Shown here piece by piece: positions 5,539-48,953 of a stretch of 64,000 nt of DNA. Below the pieces are notes generated by a model. The model had not been told where the DNA came from. It did not search any database and saw nothing but the letters and a program-made list of their open reading frames with translations. Source of the DNA: Bacillales bacterium UBA1744 (GTDB lineage Bacteria; Bacillota_I; Bacilli_A; RFN20; CAG-826); contig DCHU01000082.1 in the NCBI GenBank assembly GCA_002314915.1, positions 3,896 to 67,895 on the forward strand, given 5' to 3'. The position numbers were made by a program, and so were the translations under genes. Position 1 is the stretch's first letter; every line of letters starts with the position of its first letter.

Positions 5539-6513
5539 CTACAAATGAGAGCGGTTTTTTATGCCGTTGAATATCTTTTTCAAGTCATCTGTGGACTTGG
5601 TGTTCATCGATATTGCCGCTCTGATTTTCTTATAGCCGGGGAAGCCTTTAAAGAAATGGGGTGTGAGACCTCTTAACTGCATGACAGCATCATGCTCGCC
5701 AAGTTGCTCTATGAGCATATTCGAGAATGTCTCCGCCCACTCCACTTGATCTTCGAGGGTTGGTTCTGGTAACAACTCCTCGCCATTCATCGCTCTTTCG
5801 ATGTTGGTTATGAGTCTTGGATTGCCAAGGCCGCCTCTTGCGACCATGACAAATTGGGCTTTGGTTATTTCTAACGCTTTCATCGCATCTTCTACGGTGA
5901 AGATATCTCCGCTGATGCAAAGAGGAACTGGCAGCCTTTCTCCAAGACCTCTGATCTTTTCGTAATCGGCGGTGCCCATATAGAGCTGTCTAGATGTTCT
6001 AGCATGGATTGTGATGAGTTTTACGCCCGCTTTGACAAGGACATCGCAGATTTCCTCATAGTTGATTGAGTTCTCATCCCAGCCGAGTCTAATCTTTGCG
6101 GTTACGGGTTTTGTAGAACGCTCGCAGATGGCCTTCATGTACTCATAAAGACCCTTTGGGTCCTTGAGCCAGGCAGATCCTGCTCCGGTTTGGACGACCT
6201 TATGTACTGGACAGCCCAAATTTATGTCCAAAATGTCGTACTGAGCCTCTTTCTCGATTATATCGATAGCTTTTAGGGTCATTTCGATTTTGGAGCCGAA
6301 AAGCTGTAATCCGACCGGTCTATCGATGTCGCTTGTGGCGAAGTATCTCATCGTCTTCTCGTTGCCATATGCAAGTCCACAGTCAGAAATCATTTCACTA
6401 TAGGAAAGGGCAACGCCAAAAAGCTTACAGAAATCTCTATAAGCTAGTGTGGTCACCCCTGCCATTGGGCCGAGGATGACGTGTCCGTTTATTTCAATGT
6501 CGCCGATTTTCAT
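5539..6513 (-). CDS. dusB: tRNA-dihydrouridine synthase
   Basis: 324 aa. GPMAGVT..., LGCP, IHARTxxQ and the catalytic-Cys context typical of the Dus family. Confidence 0.9.
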   Translation of the reverse strand: MKIGDIEINGHVILGPMAGVTTLAYRDFCKLFGVALSYSEMISDCGLAYGNEKTMRYFATSDIDRPVGLQLFGSKIEMTLKAIDIIEKEAQYDILDINLGCPVHKVVQTGAGSAWLKDPKGLYEYMKAICERSTKPVTAKIRLGWDENSINYEEICDVLVKAGVKLITIHARTSRQLYMGTADYEKIRGLGERLPVPLCISGDIFTVEDAMKALEITKAQFVMVARGGLGNPRLITNIERAMNGEELLPEPTLEDQVEWAETFSNMLIEQLGEHDAVMQLRGLTPHFFKGFPGYKKIRAAISMNTKSTDDLKKIFNGIKNRSHL

Positions 6514-6519
6514 ATACTC

Positions 6520-6548
6520 AAAATAAAGAGGCCAAATTAATGGCCTCT
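6520..6548 (-). terminator. Rho-independent terminator after ftsH
   Basis: Stem AGAGGCC (6527-6533) / GGCCTCT (6542-6548), with a U-run on the minus strand. Confidence 0.6.
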
Positions 6549-6553
6549 AAATA

Positions 6554-8737
6554 TTATTCGTTTACTGGAGTTTCTTCCACAATTGGTTGTGGCTCATCGT
6601 CAGTTTTCTTTGTCTGAGCCTCTTCCTTTTCTGGAAGTTTTCCGGTCTTAACGAGAGATTCGATCTCTTCGGATGTGATTGTTTCCTGAGCTAAGAGAGT
6701 CTCTGCGATAAGGGTGACCTGTTCCTTGTGGGATGAGATGATGTCGAGCGCTTCTTTGTGGGCTTTCTCGATGATTTCTCTAACGGCCTTGTCGATTTCA
6801 TCCGCAACTGCTGCAGAGAAGTTCTTCTGGGTGTTAGCGTAGTCTCTTCCAAGGAAGACCGATCCTGTATCGTGCTCATACTGGATTGGTCCAAGGTCTG
6901 ACATACCCCATTCGGTGACCATCATACGAGCGATTCTTGTAGCCTTCTCGATATCGTTTGATGCACCTGATGAGATGTCGTCGAAGAACACTTCTTCTGA
7001 TGCGCGACCGCCGAGTAATCCGGTGATTTCTGCGAGGAGTTCCTTCTTTGTTAAGAGGAATCTGTCATCCTGTGGCATCATCTGGACGTGTCCGCCAGTC
7101 TTACCACGTGGAATGATTGTGATCTTCTGAACTTTCTCTGAGTATGGGAGAGTTAAACCGATGACTGCGTGGCCCGCTTCATGATAAGCGACCTGCTTTC
7201 TCTCGATTTCGTTCATGCCTTTGCCGTTCTTAGCAACGCCGGCGATACGTCTATCGATAGCCTCTTCGATTTCAGCCATGCCGACTTCATTCTTTTTGAA
7301 TCTGACAGCAAGAATTGCTGCTTCGTTTAAGATGTTGTCGATATCAGCACCGGAGAATCCGACCGTTCTCTTCGCGAGAACTGAGAAGTCGACTTCTGGG
7401 GAAATCTTCTTGTTTCTTGCGTGGACTTTGAAGATTGCTTCACGTCCTTTTGCGTCTGGTAAGTTAACTGTGATGATTCTATCGAATCTTCCAGGTCTCA
7501 TAAGAGCTGGGTCAAGAACATCGTCACGGTTTGTTGCTGCCATGACAAGGATACCCGCATTATATGCGAAGCCATCCATCTCAACTAACAACTGGTTGAG
7601 TGTCTGCTCACGCTCATCGTTGCCGCCACCAAGGCCTGCGCCTCTCTGACGTCCAACAGCATCGATTTCATCGATAAAGACGATACATGGAGCGGTTGCT
7701 TTAGCTTTTTTGAATAAATCTCTAACACGTCCTGCACCGACACCGACGAACATTTCGACGAAATCAGAACCTGAGATGCTATAGAATGGAACTCCAGCTT
7801 CACCAGCTGTAGCTTTAGCTAAAAGTGTTTTACCTGTACCAGGTGAGCCGACGAGAAGAACGCCTTTAGGGAGTCTTGCGCCGAATGCGGAGTACTTCTT
7901 TGGCTCTTTGAGATATTCGACCATCTCGACCATTTCAGCCTTTTCTTCATCGCAGCCTGCGACATCGTCGAATCTGACTTTTGATGTCTCTTTTCTAGCT
8001 GGTGACTTGTTGAAGTCCATAGCCTGACGGTTTGCGCCGCCTGCCGCACCTGCAAGTCTTGAGAAGAGGAATGCGCCGAATCCGATCAAGAGAACGAGTT
8101 CAATGATCGTTGGTCCCCAAGTTTCCCACCAAGACACTTCGTAAGCGTCTTCAACTGAGATTGTGCCTTTTGTCAACGTCTTGAGCGCGTTTGCTGAGAC
8201 AAGAGATTCAAAATATTTTGAATCAATCTTATCATTCCACTCGTTGACCTTGTTTGTGAGGATTGTTGCGTAGGATTCGTGGTTAGCTTTGTATGCTGTT
8301 CCGCCATCATAGACCGTTATGGTTTCTTCGTTATCAAATCTGTCGTTTGAGATGTAAACGGTTGTTGTGGTCTTGTTGACAGGGGCGCCGCTCAAATCAA
8401 TCTGGTAGACGGTCATCTTGACCACTACTGCCTGATAGCTCTTTGATTCTGACCAAGACTGAACGTAGTAGGTCTTTTTGGCATTTTCCGCTGTGATGCT
8501 TGAGTAGTCGGTGTTGATTTCCATTACCGCCACATCACCTTCTTTAACGACGTTTCCGTCTGCGTCTTTCTTGAGTTCATATCTCAAATATGTGTCTAAA
8601 TCACCTTCATTCCAGGTTGTTGATTTAGTAACCGCCGAGGAAATGAAGTAGAAAATGAAGGCGATTGCGATTGCGCCTATGATCAAATATGGGATAAGGG
8701 TTAATAACGGACTACGCTTCTTTGGTTGTTCATCCAT
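6554..8737 (-). CDS. ftsH: ATP-dependent zinc metalloprotease FtsH
   Basis: 727 aa. AAA+ Walker A GSPGTGKT, Walker B FIDEID, SRH region, zinc motif HEAGHA. Two TM segments flank an unusually long external domain. Confidence 0.95.
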
Positions 8738-15452: not shown

Positions 15453-15471
15453 AGCCCGCTATAAGCGGGTT
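15453..15471. terminator. Bidirectional terminator between convergent genes
   Basis: Stem CCCGCT / AGCGGG, flanked by an A-run (15443-15453) and a T-run (15470-15473). Confidence 0.6.
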
Positions 15472-15476
15472 TTCTG

Positions 15477-16259
15477 TTATCCCAAAAGTTCTTCGTAGGC
15501 CTGATAATCTGAATCGTATTTCATACAAAACACCACGACCGGTGCGTCATCATGTTCGTTTAGGAACTCTTCAACCGCGTTGACGGCAATCTTTGCGGCC
15601 GATTTGCTTGAAAATCCCTTTTCTCCTACGCCTAAAGCAGGAAAACATATAGATTTAAGGCCCATACGCATTGCGAGCTCCAGACATGATAAATAGCAGT
15701 TCAGCAGTTCAGATGTTTCTTTTTTGCTAGGCCTATCCTTAAAACGCGGTGCAACGGTATGTAAAACGTATTTGCAAGGGAGGTTATAACCTTTGGTTAT
15801 TTTGGCGTGGCCAGGTTGCTCGTCTCCTTTTTGTTTTTTCATTATCTCATAACACTCGTTTCTCAATTGAAGCCCTGCGGCAGAATGGATGTCGTTATCG
15901 ACACAGTAGTGACCAGGAACAAAACACCCCAATAAGGTTTGGGAAGCGGGGTCCACTATAGCATCCACTGCCATTTTTGTTATGTCGCCTTTTACTAGTC
16001 CAACTTTAGAAATTGTTGTAGATGTAATGTCTCTCAAAGAATATATTCTTTGTTTTGATAACTCATATTTAAGAAGGGCGTCTTGGGCGGATAAGAACGA
16101 CTCAGGCAACGGTCCAGGTCTCTTGAGGTTCATAAGATCTCTAAGCGCCCTTCTTTTGTCTGCAACGGTATCCGAATAAGAAATAACCCCCTTAAACTCT
16201 GGCATTGAGTCAAAAAGGAAGGTAACAAGACGGTTGATGGTTTCTAGATACGTAGCCAT
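15477..16259 (-). CDS. Macrodomain protein (protein-ADP-ribose hydrolase, zinc-macrodomain class) with a ~90-aa helical N-terminal extension
   Basis: 260 aa. GDITKMAVDAIV....LLGCFVPGHYCVDNDIHSAAGLQLR and YVLHTVAP, ICFPALGVG are macrodomain motifs. The overall layout resembles the SirTM-linked macrodomains of staphylococci and streptococci. Confidence 0.85.
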   Translation of the reverse strand: MATYLETINRLVTFLFDSMPEFKGVISYSDTVADKRRALRDLMNLKRPGPLPESFLSAQDALLKYELSKQRIYSLRDITSTTISKVGLVKGDITKMAVDAIVDPASQTLLGCFVPGHYCVDNDIHSAAGLQLRNECYEIMKKQKGDEQPGHAKITKGYNLPCKYVLHTVAPRFKDRPSKKETSELLNCYLSCLELAMRMGLKSICFPALGVGEKGFSSKSAAKIAVNAVEEFLNEHDDAPVVVFCMKYDSDYQAYEELLG

Positions 16260-16261
16260 AA

Positions 16262-16543
16262 CTATAATTTGTCGATTGCATCTTTGAGAGAATCGAGTTG
16301 ATCCATATCAAAATCAAGGTCAATATCGCTATTCTCAAATACGGTTTTGTTTTGTTTAGGCTGAGCGGAATTCTTCTTAGGAGAGTTTGTTGTGATAGGA
16401 AACGGAATGCTGTTTGTTCTGGAGACGGCCTTCAAAAACAAAGTGATTGCTGATGTCATTGATAAACCTAGTTCATCTAAGACTTTTTCAGCATTATCTT
16501 TTACCTTGCTATCAATACGTAAATTTATAGTTGTCTTCGACAT
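16262..16543 (-). CDS. RelB/DinJ-family ribbon-helix-helix protein (antitoxin-like) with an acidic C-terminal tail
   Basis: 93 aa. INLRIDSKVKDNAEKVLDELGLSMTSAITLFLKAVSRTNSIPFPI is the RelB/DinJ RHH signature. Its stop lies 2 nt before the macrodomain ATG. Confidence 0.8.
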   Translation of the reverse strand: MSKTTINLRIDSKVKDNAEKVLDELGLSMTSAITLFLKAVSRTNSIPFPITTNSPKKNSAQPKQNKTVFENSDIDLDFDMDQLDSLKDAIDKL

Positions 16544-16562
16544 TTTTTCCGTTTTTCTTTAA

Positions 16563-16605
16563 TTTGGTAATGTAATGATAATGTAACGCTTTTGGCATTA
16601 CAAGA
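16563..16605 (-). promoter_or_regulatory. Promoter/operator region of the RHH-macrodomain bicistron
   Basis: Direct repeats TAATGTAA at 16568-16575 and 16579-16586 (11-bp register), plus an inverted partial copy ATTACA at 16596-16601. On the minus strand the repeats overlap a -35 TTGTAA / -10-like TATCAT arrangement. Confidence 0.45.
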
Positions 16606-16779
16606 ATATTGAATAAACAGTTTTTGCAGTGTTTTTACGAAAAATGTCTTTAAAAATCTATATTTTTGTTAGTTGTTATCTATATTTTTTGTTACCTAAC
16701 AATTAGATATTAAAGAAACAAAAACTAGAATATTACATTTTACTCATAGTAATTAAAAATAAATGTTTCACGCTATAAG

Positions 16780-16810
16780 CAAAAAGAAAAAGGCCTTGGA
16801 GGGCCTTCTA
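16780..16810 (-). terminator. Terminator after ispE
   Basis: Stem AGGCC / GGCCT with a 6-nt loop (16791-16810), and a U-run on the minus strand (plus-strand A-run 16780-16790). Confidence 0.5.
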
Positions 16811-22842: not shown

Positions 22843-24507
22843 TTATTTCACTTTCTTCTTCTTTGCCATGATTGACTGTGTGATCAATGTCTGAGCCAAG
22901 GAGATAAGAGCACCGACGGCCCAGTAAAGTCCCATTGCAGCAGGGAGTGCGAAGCCCATGATGACCGTGAAGATAACCATGAACCAGCTCATCATCTTCA
23001 TGCTGTTGCCGTTCTTGTCCTGAGCAGGGTTTGCAGAAGTCTTTGGAATGTTCTTCATCTTCTTCTTGTTGATCCATTGAGGAATCATCATAGCGGCAAC
23101 CTGGAAGAGTGCCATTAAGAGGAATAACACAGCTGCTGTCCACCAGCCCGTTGCGTTGGTTGCCCAACCTGTGGAGAAGTTAGTCAAAACGGATGAGATT
23201 GTATCTGAAAGTCTTAAATTCAAGACGGATCCTGAAGCCAAGACGGAAGATCCTTGCATAGCGCCCCAAACACAGATGAAGACAGGGAACTGAACGACCA
23301 ACGTGATGAGCATTGAGAGTGGATTGACTTTGTTTCTCTTATAGAGAGCCATCTGCTCCTGCTGAAGTCTCTGAGCCTCGTCCTTGTTTGTGTTGGAGTT
23401 AGGGTATTTAGCCTGAATCTTAGCCAACTGTGGCTGTAATGCCTGAGTCTTCTGCTGATCAAGAGTACTCTTGAATGTGGCTGCTAAGATAACCAGACGC
23501 ACTATGACTGTGACGATAAGGATGGATAACACCTGGCCAACACCGCTTAATGTTGGGTCGATTCCGTATGCGATTGCATCAATTAATGATGCGACTGGAT
23601 AGACGATTAATCCTTCGAAGAATCCTTTCTTCCAAGCGTCTTTCCATGTCTTTTGTGTGACGTTAACGGAGATATTTGATCCGCTTCCGTAGTGTCCGAA
23701 TTTGCCGCCTTTTGTTGCGATGCAGCTTCTGGCGTTTGTGAGTTTTGACTCAACTGAGCTCTTATATGAGCTCTTGAAGTCTCCCTGTGGAACCTGCTCT
23801 TCACCGATATCGGCAGCGATTTCTTCGTTCCAGGCTTCCCATTGTTTCCAGAGGTCTTCTGAACGTTCTTTTGTTGTTGCGTCTTCTGTTCCGTAGAACT
23901 TAACGTAGCCATAGTTTAAAAGGATGCTGCTCTCATTTACTTCAGTTGAGGCTGTGTCCCAATTGTTCTTTCCGCCTGTTATTTCAGCGGTAAAGACGTT
24001 GATTTGCTCAGCTGTGATTGTTGAGGCTGTAACCTGCTGTGCAGGTTCAAGTCCTTTGTTCATTTCAGCCACAGCTGCATCGAGAACCTTCTCATCCATT
24101 GCCTTGAAGTAGGAATAGGTTGGAACTGTGTAGTTGTTGCTGATTGCGCTTGCGATGATTGAGTCTAAGAACTCAGCCTTCTTAGCGGTGTAACGTGTTG
24201 TGATTCTTTTTGATGTGTCGTTTGTCTCTAATGTCTGACCACCGACTGGGATATAAGCAAAAACACGGGTTGATTGTTCCCCGTTGATGGTGACTGGCCA
24301 ATAGCCGACGTTTTCGCCTGCGTTTTTGTAAACTTCAGGTAATTCTTCAACACTATCAACATAGACGGTAACGCCCATGTCATAGGTGTATGCTATATTG
24401 GCTTTATCGACGTTAGAGCAGAAGTTGGCTGTACATCCTGTCAAAAGGACGGTGCCAAGTGCGATACCCAATAATGAGTAAAGTGTCTTTTTGTTGCCCT
24501 TGTTCAA
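22843..24507 (-). CDS. yidC: Membrane protein insertase YidC, lipoprotein type, with a large extracytoplasmic N-terminal domain
   Basis: 554 aa. Lipobox LLTGC at residues 21-25, about 300 aa of soluble domain, then the conserved core (QQKTQALQPQLAKIQAKY..., NPLSMLITLVVQFPVFI...). Confidence 0.9.
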   Translation of the reverse strand: MNKGNKKTLYSLLGIALGTVLLTGCTANFCSNVDKANIAYTYDMGVTVYVDSVEELPEVYKNAGENVGYWPVTINGEQSTRVFAYIPVGGQTLETNDTSKRITTRYTAKKAEFLDSIIASAISNNYTVPTYSYFKAMDEKVLDAAVAEMNKGLEPAQQVTASTITAEQINVFTAEITGGKNNWDTASTEVNESSILLNYGYVKFYGTEDATTKERSEDLWKQWEAWNEEIAADIGEEQVPQGDFKSSYKSSVESKLTNARSCIATKGGKFGHYGSGSNISVNVTQKTWKDAWKKGFFEGLIVYPVASLIDAIAYGIDPTLSGVGQVLSILIVTVIVRLVILAATFKSTLDQQKTQALQPQLAKIQAKYPNSNTNKDEAQRLQQEQMALYKRNKVNPLSMLITLVVQFPVFICVWGAMQGSSVLASGSVLNLRLSDTISSVLTNFSTGWATNATGWWTAAVLFLLMALFQVAAMMIPQWINKKKMKNIPKTSANPAQDKNGNSMKMMSWFMVIFTVIMGFALPAAMGLYWAVGALISLAQTLITQSIMAKKKKVK

Positions 24508-24836
24508 TGTTTTTCTCCGATCTTCGTCAAAGACGAAACCAATTCAGTTTTATTAGATTGGAATAAGGTCGGATCGTAGGTTGTTCGTACGATGATAATA
24601 ATATCTAGACTATTGCATAAATCCATTACATCGCCGACCATCGCTCTGATCTGACGCTTGATGCGGTTACGTGTTACTGCATTTCCGTTCTTTTTGCTCA
24701 CACAGATTCCAATTCTTGGTTTGTTCTGGGTGTTGGAACGGAAATGTATTACGTAGGATTTGCTTCTCTGAGTAGGGGTGCTACGAATAATCTCGTTAAA
24801 TTCCTGGTGTTTTAAGATACGGTTATCTCTAATCAC
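24504..24836 (-). CDS. rnpA: Ribonuclease P protein component
   Basis: 110 aa. Basic, with the RNR-like motif NAVTRNRIKRQIR. Located between rpmH and yidC. Confidence 0.9.
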   Translation of the reverse strand: MIRDNRILKHQEFNEIIRSTPTQRSKSYVIHFRSNTQNKPRIGICVSKKNGNAVTRNRIKRQIRAMVGDVMDLCNSLDIIIIVRTTYDPTLFQSNKTELVSSLTKIGEKH

Positions 24837-24868
24837 GATATACCCCTAAATAAGAAAAAGACGCCAAA

Positions 24869-25003
24869 TTAGGCGCAGAGTCTAGCTCTTCCTTTTGCTC
24901 TACGGCGAGCAAGGACTTTACGGCCGTTGTGTGAAGCCATTCTTGTGCGGAAACCTGCCATATGTGCATGTTTGATTTTAGATGGTTGATATGTTCTTTT
25001 CAT
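24869..25003 (-). CDS. rpmH: 50S ribosomal protein L34
   Basis: Too short for the ORF track. Reverse-complement reads [44 protein letters not shown], with a GGAGG RBS 8 nt upstream. Confidence 0.95.
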
Positions 25004-25039
25004 TGCGCTTTCCTCCGAGTTTTACTAGCGTGCGAAATG

Positions 25040-25068
25040 ATTATAGAGATTTCACTTGCCTAAGGCAA
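25040..25068 (-). promoter_or_regulatory. rpmH operon promoter
   Basis: On the minus strand: TTGCCT (25063-25068), 17-nt spacer, TATAAT (25040-25045). Confidence 0.55.
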
Positions 25069-25101
25069 CAAGAAAACGCGCGTATATGCATAACGTTAGA
25101 A

Positions 25102-25329
25102 TGTGAATAAGTTATACACATCTGTGTGCAAAAGAGGACAAAAGCGAGAAGCCATCGAAACAAAGGTTATGTGGATAACGGTTCCAGAAGATAAGGCAAA
25201 CCACACGAAAGAAATCTGTTTTATTATCCACAAAGTTATCCACCGTAAAAAGATGTGGAAAACTCAAGAAACTCCGATAAAATGCTTTAATTTCTCATTA
25301 TTCTTATGTGGATAACTGGGTTTTCCACC
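25102..25329. other. oriC part 1: DnaA-box cluster upstream of dnaA
   Basis: Perfect TTATCCACA / TGTGGATAA boxes at 25170-25178, 25224-25232 and 25307-25315. One-mismatch boxes at 25102-25110, 25112-25120, 25236-25244 and 25254-25262. A weaker box at 25321-25329. Confidence 0.85.
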
Positions 25330-25382
25330 AAAAATCGTCAAATTTCATGTGCGTATGTGCTAAACTTTTCGAGGTAAAAATT

Positions 25383-26744
25383 ATGGCATTAACAGTTAGT
25401 CAGTTGGCGCAGGTCTGGGACCGCGCTTTAGCAAAAATAAAAGACGGCATCGCCGACAAGATCACTTACGAAAGTTTTTTCACAGAATCATACATCTACA
25501 GCCTTGACGGAAACGTAATCACGGTTGTGGTTAATTCTGATTTGGCCGCAAGTGTTATTTCTACAAAATATGAGTCTTTGGTTGACGAAGTTTTAAGAGA
25601 AGTTACAGGATTATCTTTTACGGTAAATTTTGTGGCTCCAGATAAGGTTCAGTCAAAACCCGTTTCATCTGCTCCAGACAAGCAGCCTTTCTTTAGCGAC
25701 TCAAGAATAGATCCAAGTTACACATTCGATACTTTCGTTGTTGGAACCTCTAATAGAGAGGCATACCAAGCGGCTGTTTTAGCAGCTAAGGATCCTGGAA
25801 AATTCTACAATCCGGTGCTTATTTTCGGAGATTCCGGCTTAGGAAAGACCCATTTGCTTCATGCAATCGGCAACACTATCAAAGAATCAAAACCGGAAAT
25901 GAGAGTCTTATATGTTAAGGCTCAGGACTTCCTTGATGAATACATCAAATACGTTAAGAACGACAGCAATGGCGTTGGTTTGGTTGAATGGTTCAAAGCA
26001 TCTGTCGACGTTCTTTTGGTTGACGATGTTCAATTCCTTGCGAACAAAACAAAAACAGAAGAGACTTTCTTCTCTATTTACAACTACTTATATTCTGCTG
26101 GAAAGCAGGTTGTCATCACTTCCGATAAACACCCAAGTTTATTGAACGGACTCGATGATCGTCTCAAAACAAGGTTTGTCCAGGGTTTGCCAATCTCAAT
26201 CGAAAGACCAGAAAAAACCGTATGCGAACTCATTTTGAGAAAGAGAATTGAGCAAAAAGGCATGACAATCGAGGATTTCGATCCAGAAGTTATCACGTAC
26301 TTCGCCTCAAAATTCGGAAGCAACGTTAGAGAACTCGAAGGTGCGTTCGATAGAATGTTCTTCTATATTACAAACTTCAAAAACGTCGACCACATCGACC
26401 TTTCCACCGCAATAGAGTCGGTCAGATCGCTCGTTAACGTAAAAGAAGATGAGGACACATTGTCTCAAGATAAGATCATCAGCACCGTTGCCGAATACTA
26501 CGGTTTGACACTTACGCAGATAACCGGAACATCTAGACAAGCCAACATTGCGCTCGCAAGACATATATCCATGTTCTTAATCAGGGTGTTGTTGGACGCT
26601 CCGTTCAAAAAGATCGGCGATAGATTCGGCGGCAAGGACCACACAACCGTCATGAACGCCGTTGAGAAGATAGAAAAAGCTTCAAAAACCGATGAGCAGC
26701 TTAAGAAAGCCATCGAGGAATTGAAGAAGAGGATAAACAGTTGA
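25383..26744 (+). CDS. dnaA: Chromosomal replication initiator protein DnaA
   Basis: 453 aa from ATG 25383 (GAGG RBS). AAA+ Walker A GDSGLGKTHLL, Walker B LLVDDVQF, C-terminal DnaA signature in domain IV (IALARHISMFL..., GGKDHTTV). The track's extra 25 N-terminal residues run through the DnaA boxes and are not credible. Confidence 0.97.
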   Translation: MALTVSQLAQVWDRALAKIKDGIADKITYESFFTESYIYSLDGNVITVVVNSDLAASVISTKYESLVDEVLREVTGLSFTVNFVAPDKVQSKPVSSAPDKQPFFSDSRIDPSYTFDTFVVGTSNREAYQAAVLAAKDPGKFYNPVLIFGDSGLGKTHLLHAIGNTIKESKPEMRVLYVKAQDFLDEYIKYVKNDSNGVGLVEWFKASVDVLLVDDVQFLANKTKTEETFFSIYNYLYSAGKQVVITSDKHPSLLNGLDDRLKTRFVQGLPISIERPEKTVCELILRKRIEQKGMTIEDFDPEVITYFASKFGSNVRELEGAFDRMFFYITNFKNVDHIDLSTAIESVRSLVNVKEDEDTLSQDKIISTVAEYYGLTLTQITGTSRQANIALARHISMFLIRVLLDAPFKKIGDRFGGKDHTTVMNAVEKIEKASKTDEQLKKAIEELKKRINS

Positions 26745-26750
26745 TAACCA

Positions 26751-26860
26751 TGTGGATGAATAACTCAGTCATCATCGAAGAAAAAGGAGTTATCCACAAA
26801 TCCACACGCGCATTAATATTATTAATATAATATATATAATATAGATATATAGATAAGGAG
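26751..26860. other. oriC part 2: DnaA boxes plus an AT-rich candidate unwinding element between dnaA and dnaN
   Basis: TGTGGATGA at 26751-26759 (1 mismatch), perfect TTATCCACA at 26790-26798, AAATCCACA at 26798-26806, then an almost pure A/T tract at 26812-26855 (ATTAATATTATTAATATAATATATATAATATAGATATATAGATAA). Confidence 0.7.
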
Positions 26861-26866
26861 AACCTT

Positions 26867-27985
26867 ATGAGATTCACAATTACAAAGGACGAATTATTAA
26901 AGGGATTGTTATCTGCAGGCCATGCTGTAGGAACTGCATCAGCAAACCCAACCCTCTCTAGCTTTAAATTAGAGATGACATCCAAAGGACTTGAAATCAC
27001 ATCGTCCAATGGAGATATCTCAATCTGGACTTTAATCCCTGAATACAGGGGAGAAAACCAGATAATCAGAAACTCTTCCTTGGGATCCGTTTTGATCAAT
27101 GCGAGAATCGTTACTGAGGTTGCCAAAAGAATCAGTGGAAGCGAAGTGACCGTTGAAATCATTGACAACGCAATCGCGAAAATCGATGACGGCAAATCAT
27201 CATTCAAACTTAACTGCATGGATGCTGACGAATACCCAGACATCGATTTCGACAAGACCGGAAACTCATTCGTTGTCGCGTGCGATGCCTTATCAAAATT
27301 GACAGCTCAGACCGCATTCGCTGCTTCAGATAAGAACCGTCCGGTTTTAGGCGCGGTCAACCTCAAGGCCGAAGCGGGCAACTTAACAGCTACAGCAACC
27401 GACTCAGCAAGACTTTCAAGAAAGACAATCGCGGTCGAACCAAATTTGAGATTCTCTGCAAATATCCCAGCAAAAACCTTATCTGATATCGTAAAAATGT
27501 TCGATTCCGTCGAAGAAGTCGAGATTTCTGCTTCAAGAGAAAAAATCGTCTTCTCATTCGGAACAACCATCGTCACAAGCAGATTGATTTCTGATGACTA
27601 CCCGGTCTCAAGCTCAATCGTTCCACAGGTCTTCAACTATTATCTCGAGATCAACTCTCAGCAGCTCTTGAACGCCATCGACCGTGTCTCCATCCTTTCA
27701 ACGGATAAGGCATCGGTCGTTAAACTCTCCATGACCGCCGACAACGTTGAAATCTCATCTTCTTCAGACCAGAACGGTTCCGGCATTGAGAAGTTATCAA
27801 CCATCCAGTTCACCGGCGACAGACTCGACATTGCGTTCAACGCATCGTTCGTTTCTCAGGCTGTTCGTGCACTTGGCTGCGAGGATGTCACATTCTCATT
27901 TGTAGGCGAAATGAGACCATTCGTCATCAAAAACCCTGAAGATGATTCCGTGGTCGAATTAATCACCCCAATGAGGATGAGATAA
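26867..27985 (+). CDS. dnaN: DNA polymerase III beta sliding clamp
   Basis: 372 aa. Three-domain clamp with typical N-terminus MRFTITKDELLKGL and C-terminus ELITPMRM. Confidence 0.97.
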   Translation: MRFTITKDELLKGLLSAGHAVGTASANPTLSSFKLEMTSKGLEITSSNGDISIWTLIPEYRGENQIIRNSSLGSVLINARIVTEVAKRISGSEVTVEIIDNAIAKIDDGKSSFKLNCMDADEYPDIDFDKTGNSFVVACDALSKLTAQTAFAASDKNRPVLGAVNLKAEAGNLTATATDSARLSRKTIAVEPNLRFSANIPAKTLSDIVKMFDSVEEVEISASREKIVFSFGTTIVTSRLISDDYPVSSSIVPQVFNYYLEINSQQLLNAIDRVSILSTDKASVVKLSMTADNVEISSSSDQNGSGIEKLSTIQFTGDRLDIAFNASFVSQAVRALGCEDVTFSFVGEMRPFVIKNPEDDSVVELITPMRMR

Positions 27986-28017
27986 GCCTTTTTAGGCCCT
28001 TTAAAAATTTATTTTAA

Positions 28018-28046
28018 AGAGACGCAAAAATGCGTTTCTTTTTTTA
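28018..28046 (+). terminator. Terminator after dnaN
   Basis: 9-bp stem AGAGACGCA / TGCGTTTCT (one G-U pair), AAAA loop, T-run at 28039-28045. Confidence 0.6.
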
Positions 28047-28068
28047 CTACTTGTAGTAAACTATATAC

Positions 28069-28299
28069 ATGGCAAAAATAGGCACTTCCAGACAAATTAA
28101 AATCAGCACCGAGTTTATTACCCTCGGACAGCTTCTCAAGTTTGCTGACGTCATTGACGAGGGCGGGATGGCGAAATTCTACCTCGCCAACAATCGCGTC
28201 TTGGTGAACGGTGAAGAAGAGAACCGCAGAGGAAAGAAGCTTAGACCCGGTGATACGGTTGAGTTGAAGGAAGGGAAATTCGAGATTGTAGACAAATGA
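28069..28299 (+). CDS. yaaA: S4-domain RNA-binding protein YaaA
   Basis: 76 aa. ITLGQLLKFADVIDEGGMAKFYL...VNGEEENRRGKKLRPGD resembles B. subtilis YaaA. ATGA overlap with recF. Confidence 0.85.
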   Translation: MAKIGTSRQIKISTEFITLGQLLKFADVIDEGGMAKFYLANNRVLVNGEEENRRGKKLRPGDTVELKEGKFEIVDK

Positions 28300-29366
28300 T
28301 CCTCGAGAAGATGTCACTTGCGAACTTCAGGTCATATGACAAATGTGATGTGCAGTTCGGGCCCGGCGTAAATGTCATAGTCGGGGCAAACGGATCCGGC
28401 AAGACCAATCTTGCCGAGTCCATCCATCTGATGTCTTTGGCTAAGAGCTGGCGAACAAACGAATCATCGACGCTTATCGGCATCGATTGTGATTACGCGT
28501 ACGCAGAGGCGCGCGTCAATAGTGGGGGCATGACAAGAACGATCGGAATCCAAATCTCCAGAAAAGGGAAGAAGGTTCTGATAAACGGGAAGCCGGTCAA
28601 GAGATTGAGCGAGCTCTCCAAGTGTGTGAATGTCATCGTGTTCTCGCCGGAAGACGTATCGCTCTTCAAAGGCTCACCAAGCGAGAGAAGGTCATTCCTT
28701 GACGTGAACATCTCAAAGCGTTCCCTGGATTACTTCTCCCTCATCGCGAAATTCAACAAACTGCTTGAAGAGCGCAACGCAGCCCTGAAGTCAGAACCTG
28801 TGGATAGAACATATCTGAAGGTCGTGACAGAGAGGTTGATTGAGGTTGAGGAGCCATTATCTCGCTACAGACGGCTTTACGTTGACGAGCTGAATAAAAT
28901 ACTATCGGACGTCGCGAGTGGGCTCTATGGGGCGGAAAGAAGCGTAAGAATTAATTACAAACCTTTCATCAAGTCCATAGACGAATTCAAGTCTCATGCC
29001 ACAAAACTCTATGATAGAAACCTCGAAAGCGACATCTATCACAAGAGCACATCGGTTGGCCTCCATCGCGAGGACTTCGAACTGATGCTGGACGGAAAGA
29101 ACATCGCGTTTTACGGAAGCCAGGGAGAAAACAGGCTCTCGGCTATCGCCTTAAAGATGTCGCCATACTTCCTAATCGAAGATGACGATCAGAAACCAAT
29201 CGCTGTTCTGGACGATGTTTATAGCGAACTAGACGCGAACCACGCAGCGCGTCTCACCGAGCTGGTGAAAAAGATGGGCCAAACGTTCATCACTGCGACG
29301 AATTTGGAAATTGAGGGAGCCACCTATATAGATGTCTCCTCGAATAGAGCCGTTAGGAGGAAATGA
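28296..29366 (+). CDS. recF: DNA replication and repair protein RecF
   Basis: 356 aa. Walker A GANGSGKTN, signature-like GSQGENRL, Walker B AVLDDVYSELD. Confidence 0.95.
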   Translation: MILEKMSLANFRSYDKCDVQFGPGVNVIVGANGSGKTNLAESIHLMSLAKSWRTNESSTLIGIDCDYAYAEARVNSGGMTRTIGIQISRKGKKVLINGKPVKRLSELSKCVNVIVFSPEDVSLFKGSPSERRSFLDVNISKRSLDYFSLIAKFNKLLEERNAALKSEPVDRTYLKVVTERLIEVEEPLSRYRRLYVDELNKILSDVASGLYGAERSVRINYKPFIKSIDEFKSHATKLYDRNLESDIYHKSTSVGLHREDFELMLDGKNIAFYGSQGENRLSAIALKMSPYFLIEDDDQKPIAVLDDVYSELDANHAARLTELVKKMGQTFITATNLEIEGATYIDVSSNRAVRRK

Positions 29367-29367
29367 A

Positions 29368-31440
29368 ATGGCGGATGAAAAGAAACTAGCTGCTGCCGCT
29401 GAAGCGAGCGGTGCAACGGCTGAATCCATCGAAGAAGAGGGTAAATTCTCTTACTCCGGTGTTGAAACAGACATTGATAGACGCAGCATCGAAAAAGCCG
29501 ATGAGAAATACACCGGCGAAAACATTCAGGTCTTAGAAGGTCTTGAAGCTGTCAGAAAGCGCCCTGGTATGTATATCGGCACCACAGCGTCGGCAGGTCT
29601 TCACCACCTTGTATGGGAAATTGTCGATAACTCAATCGACGAAGCCTTAGCAGGATACTGTGACAGAATCGACGTTATCATCAACAAAGGTAACAGCATC
29701 ACAGTCAAGGATAATGGACGTGGTATCCCTGTCGATAAGGTTGCAAAATCAGGATTATCCGGTGTCGAAACCGCATATACAATCCTTCACGCTGGCGGTA
29801 AGTTCGGCGAAGGCGGAGGCTATAAGGTTTCCGGTGGTCTTCACGGTGTCGGCGCATCAGTCGTCAACGCTTTATCAACATGGTGCGAAGTCGTCGTTTG
29901 CAGAGATGGCGGAGAATTCAAGGTCCGCTTCGAAGATGGTGGTAAGATCGCTCAGCCACTCGCAAGAGTTGGCGACAGCAGTGCAAGAGGCACAGCGGTC
30001 ACATTCTTACCAGACCCAACAATCTTCACAGAAACACAGACATATAACTACGAGTCAATCAAGAATCACATGCGTCAGATGGCTTTCCTCAACGGCGGCG
30101 TCAGACTCTGCTTAACAGATGACCGTGGCGAAGAACCAGTCCACGAAGAGTTCTTCTATGAAGGCGGTATTAAGGAATACGTTTCCTTCATTAACTCCGC
30201 AAAAATCGCAATCTCTGGACCGGTAATCTACTGTTCAGGCGCTGAAGAGGTCACCCTCTTAGACGGAACAAAGGAGAAGATTTTCGCTGAAATCGCACTC
30301 CAGTGGACAGATGGATATAGCTCAGACGGCGTTTACTCATTCTGTAACAACATCACCACAAAAGAAGGTGGTACACACGTTGAGGGTTTCAACCTCGCAA
30401 TCAACAGAACGATGAACGCTTACGCTAAGAAGGCAAAACTCTTAGACGACAAAGATAAATTCACAACCGAAGACTGTAAGGAAGGCTTAACTTGTGTCAT
30501 TTCCGCAAAGCACCCTAACCCACAGTATGAAGGTCAGACCAAGACAAAGCTCGGTAACTCAGAGGTCAGAAAGATTGTCTCAACAATCGTCGGTGACCAG
30601 TTAGAGCAGTACTTACTCGAGCATCCAGATATCGCAAAGACAATCGTTCAGAAAATCAGCATGGCATCCAAGGCAAGAGCCGCGGCTGTTAGAGCAAGAG
30701 AAGCTGTCCGTAAAGATGCTCTCGGAGTCACAACACTCCCTGGAAAGCTTGCAGATTGCTCCTCAAAGATTCCTGAAGAGTGCGAATTGTACATCGTTGA
30801 GGGTAACTCAGCAGGCGGTTCCGCAAAGAACGGACGTGATAGAGAAACCCAGGCAATTCTCCCTTTAAGAGGTAAGATCCTTAACGTCGAGAAGGCAAGA
30901 GAAGAAAGAATCTTCAAGAACGCTGAAATCGGAAACATGATCACCGCAATCGGCGCTGGTATCCGCGAGAACTTCGATGTCTCAAAGATCAGATACCACA
31001 AAGTCGTCATCATGACCGATGCTGACGTCGACGGCGACCACATCAGAATCCTTCTCTTAACATTCTTCTACAGATTCATGAGACCGCTCATTGAAGGCGG
31101 ATTCGTGTATATCGCCCAGCCACCTCTCTACAAGATTGAGGTTAAGGGCAACCAGTATTACGCATACAACGATGCTCAGTTAGAGCAGTTAAAGAAAGCC
31201 CTCCAGCTCAGAGCTGGATATCCATTCCAGAGATATAAAGGACTTGGTGAAATGGACGCTCAGCAGTTATGGGAAACAACAATGGACCCTAAGTGCCGTA
31301 AGATGATCCGTATCACGATCGACGACGCTGCAGAAGCAGAAAAGGCATTCTCCGAACTCATGGGCGAAGATGTCTTACCACGTAAGAATTTCATAACAGA
31401 GAGAGCTGTATTCATCAATCGTGATGACCTCGATATTTAA
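29368..31440 (+). CDS. gyrB: DNA gyrase subunit B
   Basis: 690 aa from ATG 29368 (AGGAGG RBS). IQVLEGLEAVRKRPGMYIG, GHKL ATPase motifs, TOPRIM EGNSAGGSAK, PLRGKILNVE, DADVDGDHI. Confidence 0.97.
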   Translation: MADEKKLAAAAEASGATAESIEEEGKFSYSGVETDIDRRSIEKADEKYTGENIQVLEGLEAVRKRPGMYIGTTASAGLHHLVWEIVDNSIDEALAGYCDRIDVIINKGNSITVKDNGRGIPVDKVAKSGLSGVETAYTILHAGGKFGEGGGYKVSGGLHGVGASVVNALSTWCEVVVCRDGGEFKVRFEDGGKIAQPLARVGDSSARGTAVTFLPDPTIFTETQTYNYESIKNHMRQMAFLNGGVRLCLTDDRGEEPVHEEFFYEGGIKEYVSFINSAKIAISGPVIYCSGAEEVTLLDGTKEKIFAEIALQWTDGYSSDGVYSFCNNITTKEGGTHVEGFNLAINRTMNAYAKKAKLLDDKDKFTTEDCKEGLTCVISAKHPNPQYEGQTKTKLGNSEVRKIVSTIVGDQLEQYLLEHPDIAKTIVQKISMASKARAAAVRAREAVRKDALGVTTLPGKLADCSSKIPEECELYIVEGNSAGGSAKNGRDRETQAILPLRGKILNVEKAREERIFKNAEIGNMITAIGAGIRENFDVSKIRYHKVVIMTDADVDGDHIRILLLTFFYRFMRPLIEGGFVYIAQPPLYKIEVKGNQYYAYNDAQLEQLKKALQLRAGYPFQRYKGLGEMDAQQLWETTMDPKCRKMIRITIDDAAEAEKAFSELMGEDVLPRKNFITERAVFINRDDLDI

Positions 31441-31455
31441 TGAAAGGAGACCGAC

Positions 31456-34125
31456 ATGGAAAACGAAGACAAGAAAATTGAAGAGATTTCTGAGGAAGCA
31501 GAAGTCACAGAAGAACAGTCATCAGCAGCCGCTGGTATCGTTCCTGGTCTCATCGATAGAGAGATCACAGAGGAAGTTCACACAGCTTTCCTCGCATACT
31601 CGATGTCCGTTATCGTCAGCCGTGCAATCCCTGACGTCAGAGACGGATTGAAACCAGTTCAAAGAAGAATCATCTACGGTATGGATGAGTCAGGCATGCA
31701 GCCGGGCAAACCATACAAGAAATCAGCTCGTATCGTCGGTGACGTCATGGGTAAATATCACCCACACGGCGACGCCGCACTTTACGGAACACTCGTACGT
31801 TTAGCTCAGCCATTCTCGCTCAGATACACATTAGTCGACGGACACGGTAACTTCGGTTCTATCGACGGCGACGAAGCTGCTGCTATGCGTTACACCGAAG
31901 CAAGAATGAACAAGCTTGCTGTCGAAATGGTTAGAGACTTAGACAAAGACACAGTCGACTTTGTCGATAACTATGACGGCACCGAAACAGAACCTTCGGT
32001 TCTTCCTTCAAGAATCCCTAACTTAATCATCAATGGATCTGAAGGTATTGCGGTTGGTATGGCTACAAACATGGCCCCACACAACCTCTCAGAAACAATC
32101 AACGCAATCGTCGCTCTTTGCAGAAACCCAGAGTTAACTGTCGAAGAGATGATGAGAGATTATCTCCATGGACCAGACTTCCCAACAGGCGGCGTCATCC
32201 TTGGAAGACAGGGCATCGTTGATGCTTACACAAACGGCACAGGAACAATCACAATCCGTTCCAAATACCACATTGAAGAAAAAGAAGGCCAGAAGGCAAA
32301 GATCATCGTCACAGAGATCCCTTATCAGGTTAACAAATCTGCAATGATCGAAAAGATGGCTGAGCTCGTTCGCGACAAAGTTCTCGAAGGTATCAGCGAC
32401 ATCCGTGACGAATCCAACAAAGAAGGTATCCGTGTTGTCATCGAAATCAAACGTGACTTCATGCCTGAAATCGTTGCAAATAACCTCTTAAAGCACACAG
32501 ATTTACAGACAAACTTCGGTATCATCAACCTTTGCTTAGTCAACAACGCACCAAAAATCCTTGGCATGAAGGAGATGTTGCAGAACTACATCGACTTCCA
32601 GATTGAGGTCTTAACAAGAAGAACAAGAAAACTCTTAGAGAACGACTCAAAGAGAGATCATTTGGTCGTTGGTCTCATCCTCGCTCACGACAATATCGAT
32701 GACGTTATCAACATCATCAGATCATCAAAGAACGACGAAGAATCAACAGCAAAATTAAAAGAAAAATACGGTTTATCAGACGAGCAGATCGGATCAATCC
32801 TCGCAATGACATTGAGAAGATTGCAGGGACTTGAACAGGATAAGCTCCACGCTGAACACAACCAGTTAACAGCCAACATCGCAGAGTACAACAGACTCTT
32901 GAGCGACAAGGCAAACATCGTCGAACTCCTCATCCAGGAAATCTCAGAAATCGAAAGAAAGTATGGCGACGAAAGACTCACAACAATCACAGACGATGCA
33001 GCCAACATCGACAACGAAGACCTCATCCCAGAGGAGAATATCGTCGTCGTTCTTACAAAGAACGGTTACATCAAGAGAATGAATGACACCACATTCCGTG
33101 CTCAGAACAGAGGCGGCAGAGGTGTTAAGGGCGTCACAACAACAAATGGTGACTTTGTCCGTATCATCAGACACACAAAGACACACACCGACGTCTTATT
33201 CTTCTCATCTGTTGGTAAAGTCTACAGATTAAGAGGCTATCAGATCCCTGAGGGAACAAGAGACTCAAAAGGTCTTCCAATCGTTAACCTCTTGGCTCTC
33301 GACTCATCGGTCGAAGAGAGAATTGTCTCAATCGTTGCATGCGATGACTACAATCCAAACGATTACTTATTCTTCGCAACAGTCAACGGTCTCGTTAAGA
33401 GAACAAAGTTATCAGAATACGAATCCATCCACCAGAACGGTAAGCGCGCTGTTGGATTAAGAGAAGGTGATGAACTTCTCGATGTTAAGAGAACGGACGG
33501 AAACGCAATCGTATCCATGGCTGCATCAACCGGCAAGGTCTGCACATTCAACGAAGCTGACGCTCGTGAGATGGGAAGAGACGCAACCGGTGTTAAGGGT
33601 ATGGAAATCGATGAGGGAACAAAGATTGTCGACCTCACAACATCACTCGAAGGCACAAAGCTCTTGGTCTTAACAACAACCGGCTACGGTAAGATCTCAT
33701 ACGTCAACGACACCGATGTCACTGACGAAGACGGAAACGTCCGCCACTACGAAGGCTATCGTATGACAACAAGAGGCGCTAGAGGTGTCCTCTCACTCAA
33801 GATGAGCGCAAAGAACGGTGAATTAACCGCTATGAGAGGCGTTAACGGAGACGAAGACCTGATGGTCATCACCAACAAAGGCATCGTCATCAGAACACCT
33901 TTGAGCCAGATCAAGATCGCCGGTAGAAATACTCAGGGCGTCAAGATCATCAACCTCGAACCACACAACAAAGTCGCTGCTATCACAATCGTTCCACATG
34001 AAGATGAGGAAGAGGTTGTCGACACACCTATCATCGAAGATGATGAAATCAACCCATCATTGGTTGGTGAGACCGAAGAAGTCGTCGCAGCAGAAGAGGT
34101 TGTCACGCCAGACGACATCATGTAA
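31456..34125 (+). CDS. gyrA: DNA gyrase subunit A
   Basis: 889 aa. [19 protein letters not shown] region [17 protein letters not shown], active-site region AAMRYTE, beta-pinwheel CTD, acidic C-terminal tail. Confidence 0.97.
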
Positions 34126-35477: not shown

Positions 35478-35498
35478 TTAAACAAATATAATAGTTAA

Positions 35499-35578
35499 GC
35501 CATCGCGAGAAGTTGTCTTCGAACCAGGTCAGGCGGGGAACCGAGCAGCCTTAAGATCAGAACTCCTGTGCGGTGGTT
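35499..35578 (+). ncRNA. ffs: Small (4.5S-type) signal recognition particle RNA
   Basis: Domain IV core CCAGGTCAGGCGGGGAACCGAGCAGCC equals the E. coli 4.5S core CCAGGUCAGGUCCGGAAGGAAGCAGCC, apart from a compensatory change in the stem under the GGAA tetraloop. Closing helix 35499-35507 / 35569-35577, followed by a T-run. Confidence 0.8.
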
Positions 35579-35602
35579 TTCTTATTGTTCTATAATAGTG
35601 GT

Positions 35603-45385: not shown

Positions 45386-46009
45386 TTAATGTTTCCAAAG
45401 GCTTCTGTATAAATCGGTTGCCAAGAGTTTTGATGCGGTCTTCGCTGGGAAGAACTTAGTTGCTTCCATAACCTCATTGGCGCCTAAATGCTCTTTTCTG
45501 ATGTAGTTAGCGAGCAATGCATAGTTTGCTTTTAATGTTGGAAGATCTGTCATCGCAACGTAGCTTAAGAACGCATTGAGGGCGACGTTATCGTTTGTGA
45601 TAGTCATGTATGGTTTTCTTAAGATGAATCTCTTAGAGAACATATAAACGCTCTTTTTGCCGCTTGTAGCCTTATTAGAGATGATTTCTAACTTATCTTC
45701 GACGGTTGGTCTTCTTCCTGTGATGCTATTAATAAAATTAATACCAGTATAGAAGCCAATTGCGTTCTTTCCGTTCTGAATATATCTCATCTCAATAGCA
45801 TCCATTGTGTCTGGAGCGGCTGTTTTCTGCTTGTCTGGGATGAAATAAACGCCATATGAGTATCTTCTAACAGCGCCTTCTTTTGTAAGTCTTAGAAGCT
45901 CTTGTTTAATGGCTGCCTGAGTCATTGTCTTGTCGTGAATATCAGATAAAAAGAACAACTCTAATGGTTGGTACTTTTCCTGAATTTGCGCAAGTAGTGA
46001 TTTTTTCAT
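45386..46009 (-). CDS. AbiEi/DUF6088-like winged-helix protein (type IV TA antitoxin-like), orphan
   Basis: 207 aa. N-terminal IKQELLRLTKEGAVRRYSYGVYFIP matches the AbiEi-type wHTH pattern (..L.rL.k.G.l.r...GvY..). Confidence 0.5.
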   Translation of the reverse strand: MKKSLLAQIQEKYQPLELFFLSDIHDKTMTQAAIKQELLRLTKEGAVRRYSYGVYFIPDKQKTAAPDTMDAIEMRYIQNGKNAIGFYTGINFINSITGRRPTVEDKLEIISNKATSGKKSVYMFSKRFILRKPYMTITNDNVALNAFLSYVAMTDLPTLKANYALLANYIRKEHLGANEVMEATKFFPAKTASKLLATDLYRSLWKH

Positions 46010-48859: not shown

Positions 48860-48953
48860 GTTTTATCCTTTCTTGCCGCCTATATGACGGCTCATACGAT
48901 TGCAACACTATCACAAGAATTATCCAATTTCACCTTTTTCATTTTTTGAAATG

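Follow-up and report, generated by a model that had tools for sequence, protein, structure and literature searches.

What does a ribbon-helix-helix (RHH) regulator of the antitoxin type do directly in front of a macrodomain gene? The question is raised by two adjacent genes on the minus strand of a 64-kb stretch of contig DCHU01000082.1 from Bacillales bacterium UBA1744 (hereafter the window; all coordinates are positions in that whole stretch). A preliminary description of the locus, made from the letters alone, proposed a toxin-antitoxin (TA)-like bicistron with the macrodomain in the toxin position, forming an autonomous module, or else a stand-alone de-ADP-ribosylation unit serving counter-defence. 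The answer that we favour, with moderate confidence, is another one: the pair would be a two-gene operon in which an antitoxin-derived RHH autorepressor controls an eraser of ADP-ribosylation of the Zn-Macro type, reduced from a larger ADP-ribosylation operon. Zn-Macros are hydrolases that reverse the marks set by SirTM enzymes, with a broad activity on ADP-ribose linked to Asp/Glu and Cys (PMC11490716). The parts of the pair are the following:

16262-16543, minus strand: RHH gene (93 aa), with an N-terminal RelB/DinJ ribbon-helix-helix, an acidic disordered linker and a C-terminal amphipathic helix
15477-16259, minus strand: Zn-Macro-type macrodomain gene (260 aa), with an N-terminal three-helix bundle, a zinc loop and an Asp/His dyad
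16257-16264, minus strand: gene junction, with the RHH stop TAG at 16262-16264, 2 nt, and the macrodomain ATG at 16257-16259

The regulator, its candidate operator and the gene junction

The RHH protein matches Pfam RelB (5.7e-13) and, at 70.9 bits, exceeds the 45.65-bit cut-off of TIGR02384 RelB_DinJ, the match spanning its first ~70 residues. Its AlphaFold2 (AF2) model has helices at residues 12-25, 29-43 and 80-92, while residues 59-76 fall below 50 in predicted local distance difference test (pLDDT) score. The protein can thus be read as a DNA-binding domain followed by an acidic, disordered linker (about residues 55-79) and an amphipathic C-terminal helix that ends in SLKDAIDKL, the acidic C-terminal stretch being DIDLDFDMDQLDSLKDAIDKL. 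Residues 1-50 are ~70% identical to DinJ-type antitoxins adjoining YafQ/ParE toxin genes, and on these comparisons the protein is genuinely of antitoxin stock. The likeness stops there, however: the YafQ-paired relatives align over residues 1-50 only, the solved DinJ and RelB structures in the PDB match RHH profile positions 3-72 only, and no C-terminal region homologous to the toxin-binding part of RelB/DinJ was found in the window protein. Nor does a cognate RelE, YafQ or ParE toxin gene lie next to it, the neighbour being the macrodomain gene; YafQ/ParE genes occur only at the related loci L006 and L007 (related loci are referred to here by L numbers).

The same division between the two halves of the protein is seen in its family. 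In a profile search, about 55 clusters matched over the full length, all of them ending in S-[ILF]-[KR]-x-A-I-[DENA]-K-[LF], and matches covering only the N-terminal 50-60 residues corresponded to ordinary antitoxins without macrodomains, present at 70+ metagenome loci, on 239 plasmids and on 9 viral contigs. The full-length protein was not found on PLSDB plasmids or IMG/VR viral contigs, where the matches were to the N-terminal RelB/DinJ part only, with coverage of at most 77%. Between the window and L003, the RHH gene shows a pN of 0.17 against a pS of 0.67 (proportions of nonsynonymous and synonymous differences; pN/pS ~0.26), indicating purifying selection. The conserved C-terminal helix suggests itself as the module that would receive a signal or mediate oligomerisation; its retention in the orphan RHH of L181, a locus that has lost the macrodomain, argues against a purely macrodomain-binding element. 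Some full-length members bear NCBI names as antitoxins from 'Bacilli bacterium' metagenome-assembled genomes (MAGs), and three members of the macrodomain-linked family (P0138, P0156 and P0173) are named 'type II toxin-antitoxin system RelB/DinJ family antitoxin'. Such a label from annotation pipelines is probably misleading here, because a toxin gene is absent at the family loci that were inspected (among these three, that of P0138 only).

Upstream of the RHH gene lie the elements that would place it under its own control:

16571-16602, minus strand: operator-like element TGTAATGC-caaaa-GCGTTACA-ttat-CATTACA, made of a 21-bp palindrome (16582-16602) and a third half-site (16571-16577)
16575-16603, minus strand: predicted sigma-70-type promoter, with -35 TTGTAA at 16598-16603, a 17-nt spacer and -10 TATCAT at 16575-16580 (consensus scan only)

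The second and third half-sites share an 11-bp register. The same region can be described as two direct repeats, TGGTAATGTAA and TGATAATGTAA, at 16565-16575 and 16576-16586 with a spacing of 11 nt, and as a 7-bp inverted pair TGTAATG/CATTACA at 16571-16577 and 16596-16602, which is the arrangement of direct repeats and inverted half-site over the likely promoter already noticed in the preliminary description. The hexamers of the predicted promoter are contained wholly within the operator. The 32-bp consensus TGTAA(C/T)GC-N5-GC(N)TTA(C/T)A-N4-C(N)TTACA was recovered in 15 of 16 loci, ending 17-39 nt before the RHH start, a distance so short that transcription would start within or just past the operator. 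The element is kept although RHH identity drops to ~40% among the loci, it forms an invariant island within an otherwise diverged spacer in the alignment of six orthologous loci, and its half-sites change in concert between the two main clades (TGTAATG/CATTACA in one, TGTAACG/CGTTACA in the other). It is this conservation across loci that makes the element more than a chance occurrence, not its count in a single sequence: the window contains a single full palindrome, and a search of it for further copies, as might betray a regulon, gave none with fewer than 3 mismatches, matches at that level being as frequent as by chance.

A palindrome of the form TGTAATGC-N5-GCTTTACA is also found upstream of the DinJ-type loci L006 (2180-2840), a DinJ-YafQ TA locus, and L008 (2056-2444), an antitoxin gene alone with no called toxin, both antitoxins having N-termini ~70% identical to that of the window RHH. 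This shared palindrome is the strongest evidence that the element would be the RHH binding site, and likewise that the regulator and its promoter-operator may have been taken together from a DinJ-YafQ cassette, with replacement of the toxin-binding C-terminus. Taken with the conservation in 15 of 16 loci, the repeats strongly suggest RHH autoregulation, as had first been proposed; the promoter-overlapping operator itself is documented at the level of sequence conservation.

The reading of the junction, TTA TAG tt ATG, leaves 2 nt between the RHH stop and the macrodomain ATG. Gaps of 2-3 nt are found also in L003/L004, L005, L001 and L176, and one of 13 nt in L183. None of the motifs GGAG, GAGG and AGGA occurs in the 25 nt upstream of the macrodomain ATG. 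The missing Shine-Dalgarno (SD) motif is weak evidence on its own, because the same crude scan detected such a motif at just 21 of the 47 open reading frames (ORFs) of the window, many of whose longest-ORF starts are probably wrong. Translation of the macrodomain is nonetheless probably coupled to that of the RHH by termination-reinitiation. In these respects the first account of the layout was accurate: a RelB/DinJ-type gene of 93 aa with an acidic tail, followed after 2 nt by the ATG of a macrodomain gene of 260 aa, is borne out by the ORF coordinates and by the Pfam and TIGR02384 matches, and no separate ribosome-binding site was recognised.

A series of operons at one chromosomal site

The full-length RHH family belongs to one lineage of uncultured Bacilli, where it either heads Zn-Macro operons or stands by itself. 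All readable contexts are at one chromosomal site, downstream of tatD-rnmV-ksgA-ispE(-glmU) or adjoining PPDK/GDPD, so that, from this synteny, the inheritance of the locus is vertical at a fixed site. Its gene content at that site varies as follows:

RHH-DUF362/4Fe-4S-ZnMacro-SirTM: L009-12/L097, L099, L100, L102
RHH-DUF362-ZnMacro without SirTM: L101, L178, L180
RHH-ZnMacro: the window, L001, L003-5, L176/177 (2-3 nt gap); L183 (13-nt gap)
RHH alone: L181/182
DUF362/4Fe-4S genes: L009:5896-7023; L178:6299-7423; L180:6341-7456; L101:1372-2529

In most relatives the RHH and Zn-Macro genes are separated by the DUF362/4Fe-4S gene, coding for 371-385 aa, and in the L009-type relatives the SirTM gene, whose product matches PDB 5A3A (2e-68), overlaps the macrodomain gene. 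L181 (RHH at 6001-6312) has lost the macrodomain, and what it keeps is the operator and an RHH with the C-terminal motif. As most relatives have the DUF362/4Fe-4S gene in between and often SirTM after, the tight bicistron of the window is best explained by secondary gene loss. The DUF362/4Fe-4S protein is itself a candidate for a substrate or partner of the SirTM/Zn-Macro enzymes. At L101 (3473-5904), the place of SirTM after the Zn-Macro is taken by a 297-aa protein resembling ferritin/rubrerythrin, as judged by eye, and by two flavodoxin-like proteins of ~250 aa.

Outside this lineage the picture differs. Among 80 Zn-Macro loci from different GTDB species (L016-L095), none has a RelB-type RHH beside the Zn-Macro, SirTM is adjacent in 69, usually overlapping downstream, and about 8 (~10%), with good flanks, have a solitary Zn-Macro among unrelated genes, with no SirTM. 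Directly upstream of the Zn-Macro, 15 of 77 loci in that survey carried a gene for a PNPOx-like/4Fe-4S protein, mostly of ~205-237 aa; 6 had an NmrA-like NAD(P)-binding protein there and 5 an HxlR-type regulator. A redox theme runs throughout these neighbourhoods. The idea that the RHH might be a conserved upstream partner of this macrodomain subfamily therefore fails across the family (0/80) and holds within one Bacilli lineage, where the linkage is conserved in other genomes and is no peculiarity of the window.

These data bear most directly on the notion of a true TA-like pair, in which the free macrodomain would inhibit growth, the C-terminal helix of the RHH would neutralise it and both proteins would repress the promoter. 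Such a pair could be suspected from the gene order and the 2-nt junction, from an RHH of RelB/DinJ stock with a TA-type operator, from the modelled antitoxin-like build (folded DNA-binding domain, disordered linker, terminal helix), and from the conservation of that helix wherever a macrodomain is present. It is nevertheless very unlikely, since in most relatives a gene of 371-385 aa separates the supposed partners and SirTM follows, inheritance is strictly vertical and syntenic near oriC, and the RHH of L181 persists with its helix and operator when no macrodomain is left. Moreover, the full-length RHH is not carried by plasmids or viral contigs in the databases searched and has no PADLOC match, no RHH accompanies the 80 other Zn-Macros, and those studied to date are erasers for which toxicity is not described (PMC11490716). 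The macrodomain as toxin, with which the preliminary description began, thus finds no support, the C-terminus of the RHH not being the toxin-binding region of DinJ and a DUF362 gene intervening in most relatives; the same is true of the autonomous module, in view of the fixed, vertically inherited site, of the absence of the full-length RHH from plasmid and viral contigs and of the RHH standing alone in L181.

The surroundings of the pair agree with a chromosomal residence. The replication-origin genes rnpA, dnaA, dnaN, recF, gyrB and gyrA occupy 24504-34125, which puts the pair ~9 kb from dnaA, in the core chromosome near oriC. Four DNA sequencing runs contain the locus; three RNA runs bearing the same label yielded zero reads. 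Further elements around it are:

15455-15469, both strands: hairpin GCCCGC-tataa-GCGGG between an A-run and a T-run, a terminator common to the macrodomain gene (minus) and the convergent tetR (plus)
16788-16809, minus strand: intrinsic terminator of ispE, upstream of the RHH gene, dividing ispE from the RHH-macrodomain transcription unit
16755-16772, minus strand: conserved non-coding block CGTGAAACATTTATTTTT in the ispE-RHH spacer, right after the ispE terminator, invariant in the six-locus alignment
about 16685-16709, minus strand: conserved block TATCTAA..AGGTAAcAAAAA, invariant across the window and L001-L005

The A-run and T-run flanking the first hairpin would allow it to work bidirectionally. 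Between ispE and the RHH gene the spacer measures 281 nt with 26% GC, against 44% window-wide, so the bidirectional terminator and the AT-rich spacer of ~280 nt had both been correctly recognised at first. Within that spacer, the CGTGAAACATTTATTTTT block is present as an exact 17-mer in L001-L005 and nearly exact in L176. An Rfam search of the spacer gave no match; this block and the AGGTAAcAAAAA one could contain a distal promoter or be bound by a second regulator, or else belong to a small RNA. A reading of the conserved CGTGAAA block as a Rex-like site was rejected, as just a single half-site fits. Elsewhere in the window, the sole Rfam match is a small signal recognition particle (SRP) RNA at 35494-35589 (RF00169, 50.9 bits), and ORFs of moderate size without a Pfam match at E<=0.001 are found at 45386-46009 (minus), 48900-49559 (plus), 44153-45349 (plus) and 54542-56778 (plus).

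The macrodomain, its active site and the search for a writer

The second gene encodes a macrodomain (Pfam Macro, 2e-31) of MacroD-type fold. It matches the NCBIfam model NF003163, 'protein-ADP-ribose hydrolase', from end to end with 255.8 bits, below the 272-bit equivalog cut-off, and its best matches among solved structures are zinc-dependent macrodomains, namely 8RSI from M. oralis (5e-59, aligned over the full length), 5KIV from S. aureus (4.5e-48), 8RSL from S. aureus and 8RSM from S. pyogenes. It is 42% identical to MorMacro, and its AF2 model (mean pLDDT 90.2) superposes on 8RSJ over the full length with a Foldseek template modelling (TM) score of 0.94 and a root-mean-square deviation of 1.6 A. 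The N-terminal three-helix bundle is present (helices 4-18, 32-45 and 53-68 at pLDDT ~90), as are the Cx4HxC zinc loop, G-C112-FVPG-H117-Y-C119, whose columns are invariant in a 25-sequence alignment, and the Dx3H dyad, D121-N-D-I-H125. By sequence, the window protein is a divergent homologue of the Zn-Macro type. Phage records gave macrodomain matches at no more than 40% identity.

The divergence concerns the ligand-binding parts. Zn-Macros also carry a NAAN motif, the last Asn of which (Asn101 in MorMacro, Asn110 in SpyMacro) contacts the distal ribose (Ariza 2024, PMC11490716). The window protein has D103-P-A-S106 at this place, and its clade relatives read NSAS, NPAS, NPAT or DPAT, so that the last position is Ser or Thr in all close relatives (the window, P0002-P0005, L005 and L176). 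The diphosphate loop with its active-site arene, ISTGxF in Zn-Macros, reads (L/I)G(V/I)GExGF in the window and its close relatives; in the window it is ALGVGEKGF, with the Phe present and residues 212-215 modelled at pLDDT <50. Other members of the lineage have gone further: the L176 macrodomain (6307-7104) has DPAT and a Glu in place of the dyad Asp, and that of L180 (7630-8247) has lost the zinc ligands (GSKVPFDTSLDA) and has an apparently truncated N-terminus. L183, from the other bicistron lineage, retains both Asn residues, as NVGN. This drift of catalytic residues in relatives without SirTM fits, as far as alignments can tell, a relaxed or changed function after loss of the writer.

The extent to which a writer is missing was assessed within the window. 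No SirTM was found there with a hidden Markov model (HMM) built from 75 sequences or by tblastn with two SirTMs, both searches covering the 64 kb of the window. Ten otherwise unassigned ORFs of the window had no Pfam match to an ADP-ribosyltransferase (ART), sirtuin, GcvH or LplA, the other ORFs being judged by eye, and the window contains no second macrodomain and no second RHH; the lack of sirtuin, GcvH-L and LplA2 genes reported at the outset therefore stands for the window. Neither of the two proteins matches PADLOC, which was run on these two proteins, DarT not being directly searched in the window, and PADLOC gave nothing meaningful with the SirTM and DUF362 proteins of the relatives. 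With the NAAN motif replaced and SirTM linkage missing in the 64 kb, the activity of the window macrodomain is not to be assumed.

A macrodomain that keeps its fold and loses a ligand contact might be merely on its way out, the gene becoming a pseudogene and the arrangement having no present function. The loss of NAAN, the further catalytic residues lost in L176 and L180 and the complete loss of the macrodomain in L181 could all be taken in this sense. We regard such decay as most improbable, because the ORF is intact and of full length in all clade members, the AF2 model is confident, junction and operator are conserved, and pN (0.19) is far below pS (0.80) between the window and L003 (pN/pS ~0.24), in keeping with purifying selection; pN and pS are quoted here rather than dN/dS because synonymous sites are saturated for the macrodomain.

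The combination of purifying selection with the exchange of the distal-ribose Asn for Ser/Thr in the window, P0002-P0005, L005 and L176 leads to another possibility, namely that after loss of SirTM the macrodomain would mainly bind ADP-ribose or an NAD metabolite, dock on the RHH helix and tune operator binding. This would amount to toxin-free conditional cooperativity in the TA style, possibly with further genomic operators, and the RHH helix with the Asn-less Zn-Macro would make a metabolite-responsive transcriptional switch, the macrodomain serving as ligand-sensing co-repressor of an exapted antitoxin. That the macrodomain is the sole cargo of the operon, and that catalysis decays further in relatives (the dyad Glu of L176, the lost zinc ligands of L180), would suit such a switch. 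We think it rather unlikely all the same, given that the window protein retains an intact zinc loop and Asp/His dyad, that the window holds no second operator copy, that the L183 bicistron keeps both Asn and that the orphan RHH of L181 has the helix without a macrodomain.

Alternatively, the eraser could have been retained as an antidote without its writer. If SirTM was harmful when unchecked, eraser and regulator might have been kept after its loss against foreign ARTs, such as phage or competitor toxins, in an anti-addiction or counter-defence role. SirTM is indeed patchy within a single syntenic lineage in which the macrodomain is nearly always kept, about one tenth of the other Zn-Macro loci (8/80, with good flanks) are likewise solitary, and the broad cleavage of Asp/Glu- and Cys-linked ADP-ribose by Zn-Macros (PMC11490716) would suit the task. 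We consider this unlikely, since SirTM toxicity is without evidence, the locus has neither a defence-island context nor a PADLOC match, and the changes in the active site speak against a broad-spectrum eraser. Of the counter-defence unit first suggested, the de-ADP-ribosylation part comes closer to the explanation that we prefer, whereas counter-defence, with no PADLOC match, is left without support.

In that preferred explanation, an RHH and its promoter-operator would have been exapted from a DinJ/YafQ-type cassette, the toxin-binding C-terminus giving way to a short conserved helix on a flexible linker. The ancestral operon of the Bacilli lineage may have been RHH-DUF362/4Fe-4S-Zn-Macro-SirTM, a writer/eraser system with a redox flavour, from which the clade of the window would have lost the Fe-S gene and SirTM, bringing the RHH stop to 2 nt from the macrodomain ATG. 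RHH dimers would occupy the 21-bp palindrome together with the third half-site next to it; as the three half-sites cover the -35 and -10 boxes, binding would shut off both genes. The macrodomain, presumably translated by reinitiation following the RHH, would then hydrolyse, or at least bind, ADP-ribosyl groups coming from a writer encoded elsewhere or from an outside source.

Some observations weigh against this explanation. Hydrolase activity is not assured, because S106 replaces the ribose-contacting Asn, the diphosphate loop is altered and the NF003163 score lies under the cut-off. Binding of the C-terminal helix to the macrodomain, if it occurs, would bring the pair mechanistically closer to a TA module. 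Finally, that DUF362 and SirTM were lost, and not gained, is inferred from how broadly each architecture is distributed. Should the explanation be true, the locus would illustrate cleanly how an antitoxin, together with its operator, can become an ordinary repressor of an operon, and the natural series of reductions, from operons with SirTM through those lacking it and those that also lack the Fe-S gene to the solitary RHH, with its changing active site, could show the role of a Zn-Macro without a writer.

Comparison with known systems

Mnt and the Arc/CopG-class RHH repressors are small proteins with a C-terminal oligomerisation helix and multi-half-site operators spaced one helical turn apart over the promoter. 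The window RHH may be of similar build, but there is no detectable sequence relationship. A closer relation exists with DinJ-YafQ and RelBE (PDB 4Q2U, 4ML0, 9LEW, 4FXE), with which the window pair shares the N-terminal RHH, the palindrome overlapping the promoter, the regulator in first position and a tightly spaced downstream gene. Unlike these modules, the window RHH has a C-terminal half unrelated to the toxin-wrapping region, the next gene encodes a macrodomain (DUF362 in relatives), and the locus is vertical, single-copy, syntenic and not mobile.

With DarTG, the pair has in common a macrodomain of an ADP-ribosylation-reversing class in a small module and, in the relatives that carry SirTM, the writer/eraser logic. 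In DarG, however, the macrodomain is fused to a domain that binds DarT, the DNA ART against which it serves as antitoxin, whereas the window pair has a MacroD/Zn-type macrodomain, a separate RHH, no DarT partner in evidence and no PADLOC match. An identity with DarTG was accordingly rejected, the best structural and sequence matches being to Zn-Macro/MacroD and not to DarG.

Among known systems, the SirTM/Zn-Macro pair comes closest (Rack 2015, Ariza 2024). Zn-Macro/SirTM systems have been studied as oxidative-stress and virulence factors, and their examples are the extended GcvH-L operon (S. aureus, S. pyogenes), the minimal pair (Methanobrevibacter oralis MorMacro, 8RSI/8RSJ) and the fungal Mfs1 fusion. 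The window macrodomain is of the same subfamily (three-helix bundle, Cx4HxC, Dx3H; TM 0.94) and relatives at the same site carry SirTM; unlike in those systems, there is no SirTM, GcvH-L or LplA2 near the window pair, DPAS stands for NAAN, the diphosphate loop is altered and an RHH heads the operon. The position of GcvH-L in the extended operon is occupied in the relatives by the DUF362/4Fe-4S protein, and likewise by a PNPOx-like/4Fe-4S protein in 15 of 77 other loci. The lineage hence offers, for Zn-Macro/SirTM operons, a dedicated regulator with a clearly defined candidate operator as well as a candidate substrate or partner. Targets and regulation of these systems, the targets of the minimal pairs included, are stated to be unknown except for the GcvH-L operon (PMC11490716). 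A literature text search found no description of an RHH-led Zn-Macro/SirTM operon or of an RHH-Zn-Macro pair without SirTM. Zn-Macros have been described only with SirTM, in the three contexts of extended operon, minimal pair and fusion (Ariza 2024, PMC11490716), and both the RHH-led operon of this Bacilli lineage and the SirTM-less RHH-Zn-Macro pair of the window lie outside all three.

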